Positions 33,001 through 36,000 of a stretch of DNA of 64,000 nt are shown piece by piece. Each line of letters begins with the position of its first letter. Position 1 is the stretch's first letter. The position numbers are program-made. The DNA is from Candidatus Nanohalobium sp. GTDB lineage: Archaea; Nanohalarchaeota; Nanosalinia; Nanosalinales; Nanosalinaceae. Location of the stretch: the NCBI GenBank assembly GCA_042217555.1, contig JBDGSL010000002.1, positions 79,343 through 143,342 of the forward strand. Direction: 5' to 3'.

Positions 33001-36000
33001 GAAGCCCAGTTCGCCATAACCTTCGCCCTGCTTCTCTCCATGAGCTATATGACCCAGACCATCGGCATCTCCAGCGTCCTCGGAGCATTCTTCGCCGGCG
33101 TCCTCGTATCCAGAAGCGAGTTCACGGATTCCCGGGCATTCCAGGAAAAGATCAACGGCATCAGCGAAGGCCTGTTCGTACCGATCTTCTTCGCATGGTT
33201 CGGCCTCTCACTACAGATCTTCGGCAGCCACGGAATACTCGCCAACATCGAAGCCGCAACCTACCTCTTCCTATTATCAACAGTGGCCAAACTCGGAATC
33301 GGCTACGCAGTAACAAAAATCCACAACATGGAAAAACCAGCCATGATCGCCTCATCACTCATCAGCCTGGACATCGAAACACTGGTCGTACTCCTCATCG
33401 CCATCGATCTCGGAGTCCTCACCAACCAGATCCTCCAGATCTTCGCACCAAGCGTCCTATTCTCCACCCTCACAATAATCGGACTCTACACCATCCTCGA
33501 CCGATAAAAAAGGGAAAAACTAAAAGAAGAACCTATAACAGTTCCTTATGGATCCTGACGAAATGCAGGAAAAATAGACGAACTGGAAGAGCAGTTTAAA
33601 GAAGGAGAGAGCCAGGTGAAGCAAGATCAGCAAGAGGCTGAGAACCTGGAGCAAGACGCCGAACAACACGAAGAAAAAGCCGGAAAAGAAGCCAAAGAAG
33701 CCGCTGCCGAGACAGAAGAAGCAGAAGAAACAGGGAACTCCCAGGAACTGGAAGACGCTGAAAAAGAAGAGGAAGCCGCCGAAGAAGAAACAGAAGAAGC
33801 AGAAGAAGAGATGGACCAGGCAGAGAAAGACATAGAAGAAGAAATACAGATAGAAGAAAAACAGGAACAGATGATAGAAGGCCTGGAAGAAGAAGCACAG
33901 GAAATGTCCAAGAAGCACTGAACAGCCTTCAACAAGAATACAGCCGGCTTCAAACAGTTAAACAGTCAGAAAACGCCCAGCTCACGAGAGAAGACTACCA
34001 GAACGTGGAAGAAATACTTGAAGAGTTCCAAGACGCGGTCTCACTTGTCAACGAGTCAACCCAGATGCTCTCCGAACTAATGGACGAAATAATGGAGACA
34101 GAGAAAGAGGAAAACCAGGTTGAACAGTTAACAGCCCAGCTTACGCAAGAATTCGAGTTTATGGAGCGAGAGGTAGCAGAACTCGAGAAAGACTACGCAC
34201 AACTCCAAGACCAGAAACATGAACAAATGGCGCAGAAAGAGGGACAAGAACTGAAACAGGAAGAAAAACATGAAAAACAGGAAGATCAAGAAGAACAAAA
34301 AATCGACGCCGAAATACAGAACGAAGTAAAGACTTCCGAACAGTTAATCAAGGAAGATGAACAATTGCTCAAACTTGTAGACCAATCCATAGACGATTTG
34401 AGAAGCCTCTACCAGCTACTTCAAAGCGAGAAAAGCATCTGGAACTTCGCACTCAACACTAATCCTCCTCTCGGAGACATAGAAGAGACAATCAACATGA
34501 TGCAGGACGCCATGAACAGCGACAAAGACGCGCTCGAGGGAATAGAAAGCGAAGAATCAAAAGCCAGGAACATGATTCCCTCCAGAACAGCAGCTCGAGC
34601 AGGAATCACTGCATCAAAACTAATCCTGCTGGTAGTAGGTGTTGTAGTAGCGGCCTCACTCTACTTCGTCTACGCGCCATGACCTCTCCATAAAAAACTG
34701 TTTCTCCATACAGAAACTGTTGAAGTCCCCTGGGGTAGCGGTCAATCCTACCAGCTTCTGGACACCGGCTTCCTCTGTGAAGACGGTTTGAGAAGAGCTT
34801 GGCTCTTCGATTGGAAATGGCTGGTGACCCAGGTTCGAATCCTGGGGGGACTAAAACACATGTCTTCTCAGATTTCCATGCAGTATTCTACCTGTTTCTT
34901 CTTGAATCCTTCTCTCCTGTAAAGTCTTCTGGCCTTCTCGTTTTCTGATTCTACATACAGTTTCAGGTAGTCGCAGTCTTCCTCTACTTCTTTTTTGACA
35001 TGTTCTATAAGTTCTGTGCCGTAGCCCTGTCCTCTAAAGTCTTTTTTGACGTAGAAGCTGAGTATTTCTGCATAACTATCTTTCTTGCGTGTTCTGCGGT
35101 GTCCTTTTTCCACACTGATATAGCCTATTTTCTCTTCCGAGTCTTCAAGGACATATACAGTGTAGTTGTCTTCACTGAATTTTTCTCTTATGGCTTCCCG
35201 GGCCCTGCCTCTTGCATCATCTTTCAGAGAGTTAAAACGAGAGTATCTCTCCATTTCACGGGCTAGAGGCAGCCAGAACTCGTCTACGATGGAATCTGAC
35301 TCCTTTAGAGAGGCTTCACGGATCCTCATGAACCAGAAACTACTTTTCCAATAACTTAAACCCTGTTGTCGTGAACCCTGTCCTTCTATAATGTTGGACA
35401 TGGTTCTTGAAACTATGAAGTCAAGAGAGGACTATCTGAGAGCAATATATGAACTTGGAGATGAGGAAGGGACCACTACTTCAGAACTGGCAGAACACCT
35501 GGACGTGTCCGATGCCAGTGCCTCGGAAGCCATACAGAAACTGGAGGAGGATAACCTGGTATGCCGCGCACCGTACAGAGGATTCACCCTGTCACCTATA
35601 GGAAAAGCTGAAGCACAGAAAGTGGCCAGAAAACACCAAGTACTCAGAGAGTTCCTTGAGAAAACACTGGAAGTAGAGAAAGCGGAGGAACAGGCCGACG
35701 CCATCGAACACAGCATAACGGAAGAGACAGCGGAGAAGATCAAGGAACTCAATCAAGGTTAACCTGTTTTCTTAAGTATTGGCTTCGTTCATTAAAACAC
35801 AGCGTACAGCCCCCTGGTGTAGTGGTCAAATAACTTGAGAACACCTCAGGTTAGGCAATTCATATCGGCCTTTGGAGCCTCAAGTTCTCTCCGCCTGGAG
35901 AGAACGAGGATTAAAGGAAACAACTGAACGTTTCCCCAAAGTTAGCCGGTGACCCAGGTTCGAATCCTGGGGGGGCTAAACACCTATCATTAATCAATCT

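Follow-up and report, generated by a model that had tools for sequence, protein, structure and literature searches.

Interrupted tRNA genes of the window and the genome

The window, that is, the whole stretch of 64,000 nucleotides of a Candidatus Nanohalobium contig that was analysed, holds four tRNA genes, Ser-GGA, Gln-CTG, Gln-TTG and Leu-TAA, and the genes of the tRNA ligase RtcB and its cofactor archease. The features are as follows, with hyphens within the bulges marking the intron borders.

2588..2995, plus strand: archease, the RtcB cofactor (Pfam PF01951, 103.9 bits)
3038..5884, plus strand: RtcB tRNA ligase, 948 aa (Pfam RtcB, 523.9 bits in two stretches)
31514..31670, plus strand: tRNA-Ser(GGA), with a 66-nt intron at 31554-31619
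34724..34853, plus strand: tRNA-Gln(CTG), 130 nt, exons 34724-34761 and 34819-34853, from ARAGORN -i and orthologues
34762..34818, plus strand: intron of tRNA-Gln(CTG) at 37/38, 57 nt, central helix TTCT/GGAA, bulges GG-A and AT-G
35808..35978, plus strand: tRNA-Gln(TTG), 171 nt, exons 35808-35829, 35860-35875 and 35944-35978, mature length 73 nt
35830..35859, plus strand: D-loop intron of tRNA-Gln(TTG), 30 nt, just 5' of the 3' strand of the D stem, at about 21/22
35876..35943, plus strand: intron of tRNA-Gln(TTG) at 37/38, 68 nt, central helix CTTT/AAAG, bulges GG-A and TT-A
52333..52482, plus strand: tRNA-Leu(TAA), with a 67-nt intron at 52371-52437, only 2 of 4 pairs being formed in its weak central helix

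Curation across the nanohaloarchaeal assembly (1.31 Mb, 94% complete, 88 contigs, 2.9% contamination) yielded 42 tRNA genes, 35 of them interrupted and seven without an intron, the same counts as in the first-pass annotation. The 35 interrupted genes hold 38 introns of 30-268 nt, so that of the range of 33-268 nt given earlier the upper end stands and the lower end does not. Default ARAGORN and Rfam at the gathering score made no tRNA call in the whole window, and ARAGORN at its default settings found seven tRNAs in the whole genome. With introns allowed (ARAGORN -i), 42 calls, not the 29 first stated, were obtained genome-wide, which cover 41 of the 42 curated genes and miss Val-TAC; five genes received a wrong anticodon (initiator Met, Gln-TTG, Ser-CGA, Ala-CGC and Ile-GAT), Gln-TTG being miscalled as Gly-ccc, and in Glu-CTC the intron was misplaced. 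One call of this mode, C75:19755-19907 ('Phe-gaa'), was rejected as a false positive: no excision yields a tRNA and the T-loop motif is missing. The 18 genes absent from the standard calls had been thought to be hidden by introns in the D-loop or by double introns. Merely four genes have such introns, and most hidden genes are therefore masked by long introns at 37/38. Split or permuted tRNA genes were not found in this genome.

Splicing in silico had been offered earlier as a check of the borders, and indeed all 35 spliced products are called by ARAGORN as full-length tRNAs with the expected anticodon, a permissive check when taken alone. When Gln-TTG was cut by 1064 arbitrary double excisions, 219 of the products were equally called full-length, and for Glu-CTC the excision of 80 nt and of 81 nt both pass; because it is too permissive, this procedure was not accepted as proof of borders.

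Intron borders and motifs

Comparison with orthologues fixes the borders of both glutamine genes to the base. Since intron-free Gln-CTG orthologues exist (genomes G016 and G023), the excision of 34762-34818 can be seen to restore their sequence, except for acceptor pair 3:70, where the change is compensatory. For Gln-TTG, relatives without one or both introns serve the same purpose: all three exons match an intron-free gene (G014), eight genomes, the congeneric G001 and seven more, have orthologues with the canonical intron only, and one orthologue (G021) has the D-loop intron only. The D-loop intron forms a relaxed HBh' motif (GGTC AA-A, a 9-bp inner helix, GGCA AT-T), and the 68-nt intron contains two internal hairpins; the sequence of the latter is kept in other genera and resembles introns of Leu-CAA and Arg-TCG. 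The unspliced Gln-TTG precursor folds with z = -5.2, none of 200 shuffles folding as well, and in its minimum-energy fold three cloverleaf stems (acceptor, D and T) are formed, as are the AAA bulge and, at the second intron, the 3' bulge. The same fold pairs G36 and G37, and the 5' bulge of the second intron is therefore not predicted to form spontaneously, which counts against the explanation favoured below. An integrase gene neighbours tRNA-Gln(TTG); a search for attachment sites, by a repeat of the 3' end of the tRNA gene downstream of the integrase, gave one 13-nt match only, so that no borders of an element could be set.

Introns in the D-loop occur in three genes (Gln-TTG, Glu-CTC, with an intron of 81 nt, and Val-TAC) and double introns also in three (Gln-TTG, Val-TAC and initiator Met), the first intron of the initiator gene lying inside the anticodon stem at 29/30. 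These positions had been proposed from the first pass and agree with orthologues that lack one or both introns, which equally back the borders in Glu-CTC, Val-TAC and initiator Met; for the initiator tRNA nine intron-free orthologues are available. Excision at borders of the bulge-helix-bulge type thus reproduces the sequence of an intron-free orthologue for Gln-CTG (apart from the pair already named), Gln-TTG, Glu-CTC, Val-TAC and initiator Met.

A strict motif (hBHBh') has a 4-bp helix between two 3-nt bulges on opposite strands, with a further helix on either side; the motifs of the two glutamine genes belong to the bulge-helix-bulge family solely via relaxed forms (HBh' or hBH class). In both glutamine genes the 37/38 intron has a central helix of 4 bp, both bulges and an outer helix of 7 bp with a contiguous inner helix of 0-1 bp; for Gln-CTG the motif scan gave a central helix that no inner helix adjoins. 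Simple strict motif criteria hold for 10 of the 34 introns at 37/38, and four of the 34 have at most two of four central pairs, and both counts speak against the favoured explanation. As for kinship among the introns, 30 of 703 pairs score above all 10 shuffles, and the initiator-tRNA intron of the relative G008 encodes a LAGLIDADG protein. A scan of 15 loci by Rfam E-value, for known RNA families within the introns, returned tRNA matches and three chance-level matches only, and a search of the Trp and elongator-Met introns for box C/D guides gave a few C-box-like words and no proper C/D arrangement. The latter search also showed one stretch of 7 nt complementary to the anticodon loop of tRNA-Trp, and hairpins resembling a K-turn ('GA-stem-GA') were seen by eye in several introns.

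Splicing enzymes and the proposed route

The enzymes named in the first-pass annotation, one EndA, RtcB and archease, are all present. The RtcB gene encodes an intein at about residues 103-570 (Intein_splicing, 62.8 bits). EndA, encoded by one gene (179 aa from ATG, 182 aa from an upstream TTG), combines an N-terminal PF02778 with the catalytic C-terminal PF01974 domain; a second PF01974 match was not detected in six-frame searches of this genome, and 67 genomes of the order have an EndA match, which in 64 of them, single-contig genomes included, is exactly one. In size, domains and gene number the protein thus looks like an alpha4-type EndA as in M. jannaschii. Its predicted structure (pLDDT 90.7) finds its best fold match in 1a79, the alpha4 EndA of M. 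jannaschii (TM 0.83/0.86). A four-copy model scored 0.56 against 0.00 for the best control, with runs agreeing in at least 85% of contacts and a partner pLDDT of at least 82, a score that may reflect likeness to solved EndA tetramers. Among proteins of solved structure, 20 of 30 that form pairs of one chain reach this mark, and so does one of 23 that are single chains; these counts apply here only roughly, as the calibration was made with two copies and alignments of its own.

On these grounds, together with the orthologue matches and the covariation described below, the view that the inserts are tRNA introns of the archaeal protein-spliced type, some of them non-canonical, is supported at the level of sequence comparison, in agreement with the first pass. 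A search for sequencing runs that contain 34600-36100 listed no run of RNA. It is highly probable that the window holds two genuine tRNA-Gln genes whose precursors bear introns that the single EndA would cut and RtcB with archease would join; the anatomy and borders of the genes, the covariation, the enzymes' presence and the spread through the lineage are shown by the analysis, and cleavage, ligation, the homotetramer and the role of the EndA insert are what we infer. In pre-tRNA-Gln(UUG), the conserved GG of the D-loop, together with the two bases after it, would pair with the 3' end of the 30-nt insert to form a central helix of 3-4 bp, followed by a 3-nt AAA bulge and then by the 9-bp intron hairpin. 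The 3' cut site would lie in a small internal loop beside the D stem, and the motif would therefore be a relaxed HBh'; the second intron, of 68 nt, would follow at 37/38. The alpha4-sized EndA, with a basic insert at the L3 site, would cut after the second nucleotide of each bulge, and RtcB with archease would ligate the three exons to the 73-nt tRNA. The same route would mature all 35 interrupted tRNAs.

The basic insert of EndA, of 7-8 residues, lies between the catalytic tyrosine and histidine, measures seven residues relative to 1a79 and aligns with loop 240-247 of ARMAN-2 and the 90-98 loop of N. equitans. The EndAs examined from Nanohaloarchaeota and Aenigmatarchaeota conserve it, and homologues of Hydrothermarchaeota and Methanobacteriota lack it. 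Passages of two publications connect these loops: the ARMAN-2 loop was superposed on the basic N. equitans loop (Hirata 2012, PMC3488258) and later named L3 (Kaneta 2018, PMC5829648), and the insert found here is accordingly placed with the Nanoarchaea/ARMAN-2-specific L3 loop as defined by Kaneta 2018. Two reports count against the proposed route, as far as the portions consulted extend: K241A and K244A in the equivalent ARMAN-2 loop had no shown effect (Hirata 2012, PMC3488258), and the alpha4 EndAs studied so far have been reported to cut strict motifs only (Kaneta 2018, PMC5829648).

A further point against the proposed route is the catalytic triad Tyr-His-Lys, of which Tyr108 and His125 are present and the lysine position is Ala156. 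By alignment, Ala156 falls on K148 of 1a79, K282 of 4fz2 and the lysine of 5x89, 3iey and 1r0v; the triad lysine is kept in every solved EndA and is an alanine in the sole EndA here. This loss seems to be unreported; a literature search, judged by titles and abstract openings, listed no publication on a triad lysine lost naturally. Because the lysine is missing, EndA might need an unrecognised partner, or else a second nuclease might serve the relaxed sites, so that the introns would be removed, though not by the 179-aa EndA alone. The position is alanine or serine in 19 of 19 insert-bearing sequences of alignment A1, the mutation K334A of the corresponding lysine abolishes the activity of M. 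kandleri EndA, and relaxed motifs predominate. Against such a partner, no other PF01974 protein exists in the searches above, which a very divergent partner would escape, neither Tyr108 nor His125 varies, two conserved basic residues (Arg155 and Lys120) lie nearby, and the homo-oligomer model exceeds its controls, a result that may reflect likeness to solved tetramers. We regard a partner or second nuclease as improbable.

The D-loop site itself bears on whether the insert is removed at all. In the order it is occupied in 19 Gln genes, which belong to 16 of the 70 genomes and 8 of the 32 genera, and a reversed control pattern gave 0 hits. Both Gln genes of Nanohaloarchaea archaeon SG9 carry the D-loop intron. 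Over the first five pairs of the inner helix, 93 of 95 cells are paired in the 19 genes; shuffling of partners gave a mean of 49.8 and a maximum of 68 in 2000 shuffles, and slid controls gave 44, 33 and 23. Pair 3 of the central helix is T-G, C-G or T-A, with A only opposite T. As judged from these comparisons, the inner helix is kept by compensatory changes, and pair 3 of the central helix covaries. The motif departs from a strict bulge-helix-bulge, which counts against its cleavage as proposed: 13 of the 19 genes have G.A as their outermost central pair, and an outer helix abutting the 3' bulge is absent. This departure, the stable hairpin of the insert and the way in which tRNAscan-SE draws such stretches in a 2026 preprint on Asgard archaea, in the portion consulted, as unpaired insertions of an enlarged D-loop would all suit a mature tRNA-Gln(UUG) that keeps an extra hairpin arm from its D-loop. 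Close relatives, G001 of the same genus among them, have the same tRNA without the insert, and what is kept in the 19 genes is the geometry alone (a 4-nt helix, a 3-nt bulge, a helix), the sequence and length of the hairpin (21-37 nt) being variable, as is predicted for a cleavage signal. Furthermore, G18 and G19 are paired within the motif, and their contacts with the T-loop would therefore be disrupted. Retention of the insert is thus very improbable. That the figure of 35 in 42 is inflated by decaying pseudogenes or second-strain duplicates, as the fragmentation and contamination of the assembly, the double occurrence of Pro-CGG, the Ala-CGC gene on C54 (with G3:U70, two mismatches in the acceptor stem and a poorly formed D stem, which may be degenerate) and the absence of five usual archaeal anticodons from the curated set (Ala-TGC, Arg-CCG, Gly-CCC, Pro-GGG and Val-CAC) might suggest, is almost certainly wrong, since all genes compared with relatives are conserved with intact exons and every anticodon other than Pro-CGG occurs once, which makes the interrupted genes the sole source of those tRNAs.

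Beyond removal by EndA, RtcB and archease, a more speculative and rather doubtful extension concerns K120, an invariant lysine inside the insert, five residues before the catalytic histidine. In the sole EndA of Nanohaloarchaeota and Aenigmatarchaeota, the insert with K120 might supply the lost triad charge and loosen recognition, and modular introns, of which at least one related member is still carried by a gene for a LAGLIDADG homing endonuclease, could therefore have spread to 83% of tRNA genes, including sites in the D-loop and anticodon stem.

Published descriptions of nanohaloarchaeal genomes list 38-39 tRNAs and 4-15 introns (PMC10266531). Of the 42 tRNA genes here, standard callers recover between 7 and about 18-24, and all four genes of the window escape them; such undercounts in small symbiont genomes risk being misread as gene loss or dependence on a host. 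The same tRNA with 0, 1 or 2 introns in close relatives, together with modules common to unrelated tRNAs, might serve to date the gain and loss of introns. Equally, the lineage provides a natural test of what allows an alpha4-sized EndA, here an enzyme without a residue held to be essential, to take relaxed motifs, and nanohaloarchaeal co-cultures exist in cultivation.

Comparison with known systems

The intron phenomenon is real, and its kind is familiar from related archaea; a literature search found no paper on the tRNA introns of Nanohalobium. For ARMAN-2 and the Micrarchaeota, an epsilon2 EndA and non-canonical introns were reportedly described by Fujishima in 2011. Common to ARMAN-2 and the present case are the affiliation to DPANN, relaxed motifs and a loop between the catalytic tyrosine and histidine, whereas, in the passages at hand, the ARMAN-2 enzyme is a three-unit fusion that owes its broad specificity to another loop (ASL, K161) and keeps the triad lysine, K282 (PMC3488258).

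A close precedent is the survey of Kaneta 2018 (NAR, PMC5829648), which in the sections consulted links L3-type EndAs in DPANN, including that of nanohaloarchaeon SG9, to disrupted tRNA genes; lineage, type of enzyme and general claim are the same as here. Its nanohaloarchaeal data stand in a figure, and the corresponding text passages give no intron positions, no load of 83%, no covariation and no missing triad lysine. According to the same source, the tRNA-Glu(UUC) precursor of M. kandleri carries a relaxed HBh' D-loop intron at 20b/21 and a canonical intron at 37/38 (PMC5829648), much as Gln-TTG here has, besides an intron at 37/38, one of the HBh' form at the 3' end of the D-loop, and Glu-CTC is interrupted at the same kind of site. 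As described there, the M. kandleri enzyme lacks a specific loop, is built as an (alpha-beta)2 heterotetramer and cuts the D-loop site poorly, unlike the single alpha4-sized EndA with an insert found here, and the site recurs here in Gln, Glu and Val across several genera.

In Thermoproteales, tRNAs with multiple introns and large-scale intron transposition have been described (Sugahara 2008 and Fujishima 2010, as summarised in passages of Fujishima & Kanai 2014, PMC4033280). Judged from that summary, most tRNA genes are interrupted in both lineages, at non-canonical sites as well and with similar introns in unrelated tRNAs, whereas Thermoproteales have an (alpha-beta)2 EndA with a Crenarchaea-specific loop, a higher number of introns in each gene, and genes that are split or permuted.

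Asgard archaea constitute a different superphylum, and a term search of the available text of the preprint on their tRNA genes (bioRxiv 10.64898/2026.10.13.758758) gave no mention of Nanohaloarchaeota or DPANN. The portion consulted describes, as found here, heavily interrupted genes with many introns missed by standard annotation, often in an enlarged D-loop, and revealed by comparison with compact relatives.

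Interrupted tRNA genes in the window and throughout the genome

The assembly under study (88 contigs, 1.31 Mb, G+C 45.8%, completeness 94%, contamination 2.9%) is, as judged from sequence, derived from a nanohaloarchaeon (DPANN). The window spans contig C12:79343-143342, and neither ARAGORN in default mode nor Rfam at gathering score recovers a tRNA in any part of it. Reading of 34500-36200 combined with ARAGORN allowing introns (-i) places two glutamine tRNA genes in the stretch considered here, separated by two further genes, one for a GNAT acetyltransferase (minus strand) and one for a DtxR-type repressor.

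34724-34853: tRNA-Gln(CTG), called by ARAGORN with introns allowed
35808-35978: tRNA-Gln(TTG), wrongly called by ARAGORN -i as Gly-ccc with one 95-nt intron

A DNA search over 41 related genomes, 36 of which gave matches, identified Gln-TTG orthologues in every intron configuration: without intron (G014), with an intron at 37/38 alone (G001 of the same genus, G005, G007, G011, G017, G020, G032 and G034), with the D-loop intron alone (G021) and with both, as in the genome under study (also G003, G008, G009, G013 and G019). As these configurations fix the borders, the Gln-TTG exons are 35808-35829, 35860-35875 and 35944-35978, and the introns therefore measure 30 nt and 68 nt. Equally, Gln-CTG after removal of 34762-34818 equals the intron-free gene of two relatives (G016, G023), with a compensatory pair 3:70 as the sole difference. 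A tyrosine recombinase gene (36133-37491, 452 aa; Phage_integrase, 61.8 bits) starts 155 nt 3' of tRNA-Gln(TTG); downstream of it, a further repeat (at least 13 nt) of the tRNA 3' end that would mark an element border was not found.

In the whole assembly, ARAGORN reports 7 tRNAs by default and 42 calls with -i, not 29 as stated in the first-pass annotation. Curation dropped the call at C75:19755, which is without a T-loop and from which no excision yields a tRNA, and added Val-TAC (contig C3:26962-27117, minus strand). The curated set holds 42 genes, 7 of them uninterrupted and 35 (83%) interrupted by 38 introns, which reproduces the totals of that annotation, while the intron range becomes 30-268 nt instead of 33-268 nt. 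Splicing in silico followed by ARAGORN, previously applied to the hardest genes, returns the expected anticodon for all 35 interrupted genes, although the check itself is weak. Five anticodons of the usual archaeal set were not found in the curated set, and the Ala-CGC gene on contig C54 looks degenerate. tRNA-Ile(TAT) is located at C24:2226-2362 with a 64-nt intron; the only CAT-anticodon genes among the ARAGORN -i calls and the curated set are initiator and elongator Met, with no candidate for a CAT-type tRNA-Ile2 seen.

The D-loop introns annotated in Val-TAC, Gln-TTG and Glu-CTC, the double introns of Val-TAC, Gln-TTG and initiator Met and the location of one initiator intron inside the anticodon stem are all borne out by relatives. 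Glu-CTC possesses a single 81-nt D-loop intron with the same motif as in Gln (GGCC AA|A ... GGCA AG|T), which is missing from G001 of the same genus, G008 and G011, with the same site being occupied in G007 and G010. Val-TAC combines a 31-nt D-loop intron, present alone in G001, G002 and G013, with a 51-nt intron at 37/38, present alone in G005. The initiator tRNA is interrupted by 32 nt at 29/30 and 38 nt at 37/38, and the intron-free gene of nine relatives equals its spliced product over both junctions and the intervening exon. As far as sequence comparison can tell, the tRNA introns are real and well supported.

Predicted cut-site motifs in the D-loop and at 37/38

A pattern consisting of the 5' part of the D-loop, 20-50 nt and the region from the D-stem 3' strand up to and including the anticodon loop matches 19 Gln genes in 16 of the 70 genomes of the order and 8 of 32 genera; among genomes of good quality, 10 of 28 have a match. 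The reversed pattern, used as a control, gives no match in the 70 genomes. One geometry is common to all 19 genes: the D-loop bases GG(T/C)C are matched to the final four intron bases ahead of the 3-nt stretch with the predicted 3' cut, a 3-nt bulge (AAA in 18 genes, AAT in one) follows the central helix strand, and the intron hairpin begins directly after this bulge. Pairs 2-4 of the central helix are formed throughout, pair 3 as C-G, T-G or T-A, and pair 1 is G.A in 13 genes. Despite widely differing sequences, hairpin pairs 1-5 are standard in 93 of 95 cells; 2000 partner shuffles average 49.8 and reach 68 at most, and slid partners give 44, 33 and 23. The Gln D-loop intron is predicted to carry a cut-site motif, and because the 3' site is without an abutting outer helix, this motif is of the relaxed bulge-helix-bulge form HBh'.

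Besides the acceptor, D and T stems, the minimum-energy fold of unspliced Gln-TTG (z = -5.2) shows the AAA bulge with its 9-bp hairpin and, for intron 2, the 3' bulge. As G36 and G37 are paired in this fold, the 5' bulge of intron 2 would not form spontaneously. In tRNAs, U at position 33 is nearly universal. Several relatives harbour a D-loop intron also in Gln-CTG (G009 at loci L018 and L103, G053, G058, G065), and there the anticodon loop reads CCCTGGC, i.e. with C at position 33.

Motif quality of introns at 37/38, by simple counting at our own borders without an energy model (indicative only)
Central helix of at least 3 pairs, outer and contiguous inner helices of at least 2 bp: 10 of 34
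Without contiguous inner helix: 20 of 34
Central helix of at most 2 pairs: 4 of 34

A hairpin of at least 4 bp directly follows the 5' bulge in 16 of the 20 introns without contiguous inner helix. These counts suggest that most introns of this genome have relaxed motifs.

Intron families and turnover

In an all-versus-all comparison of the 38 introns, 30 of 703 pairs exceed the best of ten mononucleotide shuffles, and the high-scoring pairs mostly link tRNAs for different amino acids. A two-hairpin family comprises the introns at 37/38 in Gln-TTG, Leu-CAA, Arg-TCG, Pro-TGG and Cys-GCA. The heptamer GTTACGC is present in 7 introns (about 0.09 expected), namely the Glu-CTC D-loop intron and the 37/38 introns of Val-GAC, Arg-TCT, Thr-TGT, Gly-TCC, Thr-CGT and Trp. 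Modules are common to D-loop and 37/38 sites, with examples at 35876-35943 of the window, C3:58680-58830, C83:16180-16326, C74:52-132 and C31:426-585, and resemble in their sharing the intron transposition reported for Thermoproteales (summarised in Fujishima & Kanai 2014, PMC4033280). The 3' end of several introns is a hairpin bordered by GA...GA, which appears K-turn-like by eye.

In G008, the 37/38 intron of the initiator tRNA (locus L169, minus strand) extends to approximately 455 nt with a good bulge-helix-bulge motif and includes an open reading frame (L169:1541-1978, 145 aa; LAGLIDADG_3, 30.1 bits, cut-off 22.5), such that it may represent a homing-endonuclease-borne tRNA intron. Its final six bases are identical to those of the 38-nt initiator intron at the same site in the genome under study. 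Rfam tRNA matches, a crude proxy, range from 6 to 36 per genome among 31 genomes (18 in the genome under study, 28-36 in five single-contig relatives), so that intron load seems to vary widely.

The splicing enzymes and the missing triad lysine

The annotated presence of one tRNA-splicing endonuclease EndA, the tRNA ligase RtcB and its cofactor archease holds. Archease (2588-2995) lies directly upstream of RtcB (3038-5884; 948 aa), which is split by an intein of approximately 470 residues (Intein_splicing, 62.8 bits). The single PF01974 match of the genome, outside the window at C3:54504-55052 on the minus strand (locus L021:1477-2013), encodes 179 aa from ATG and is closest to Candidatus Nanohalobium sp. 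(85%) and other Nanohaloarchaea, among them SG9 (65%). Of the 67 genomes in the order with any match, 64 have exactly one; the exceptions are a contig-end fragment, a bin with 7% contamination and two matches whose scores are identical. EndA and initiator tRNA genes are located approximately 1-3 kb apart here (C3:54504-57064) and in at least seven relatives (G002, G003, G007, G008, G010, G011, G014).

The EndA model (pLDDT 90.7) finds its best fold match in the alpha4 enzyme of M. jannaschii, and a predicted four-copy assembly scores above its controls, although the calibration was made with two copies and the score may also reflect likeness to solved EndA tetramers. The stretch from the catalytic Tyr to the catalytic His is 7 residues longer than in M. 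jannaschii; these additional residues align to ARMAN-2 residues 240-247 and the basic N. equitans loop, at the site designated L3 by Kaneta et al. 2018 (PMC5829648). Among 80 loci, 36 passed a crude extraction filter, and the alignment used holds 23 sequences; the insert is kept in the nanohaloarchaeal and Aenigmatarchaeota sequences examined and absent from Hydrothermarchaeota and Methanobacteriota homologues.

The triad-lysine position is alanine (...NIRAS...), while lysine is found in all five solved EndAs aligned. Within the 23-sequence alignment, A or S occupies this position in 19 of 19 insert-bearing sequences and K in the four without insert. In a wider survey of the best 150 representatives of a 1.84-billion-protein library plus the EndA under study, the resulting 150 Tyr+His units show K in 138, A in 7, S in 3 and T in 1, with one truncated. 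Of the 11 units without K, 10 have a Tyr-His loop of 14-16 residues; K is retained in nine further units with a long loop. K120 of the insert is invariant in the 19 insert-bearing sequences, and each of the 23 aligned sequences has R or K at position 155; K120 or R155 might stand in for the triad lysine. Kaneta et al. 2018 (PMC5829648) describe the triad as well conserved, with K334A inactivating the M. kandleri enzyme; among the papers listed by the literature searches, none describes this substitution in its title or abstract opening.

Non-canonical and multiple tRNA introns together with an L3-bearing alpha4-type EndA are already in print for DPANN, the lineage having been surveyed in 2018. 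Beyond print, as far as found, are the interruption of 83% of the tRNA genes, a D-loop site that recurs and covaries in genes for Gln, Glu and Val tRNAs, the intron modules common to several tRNA genes and, foremost, a sole EndA without the triad lysine.
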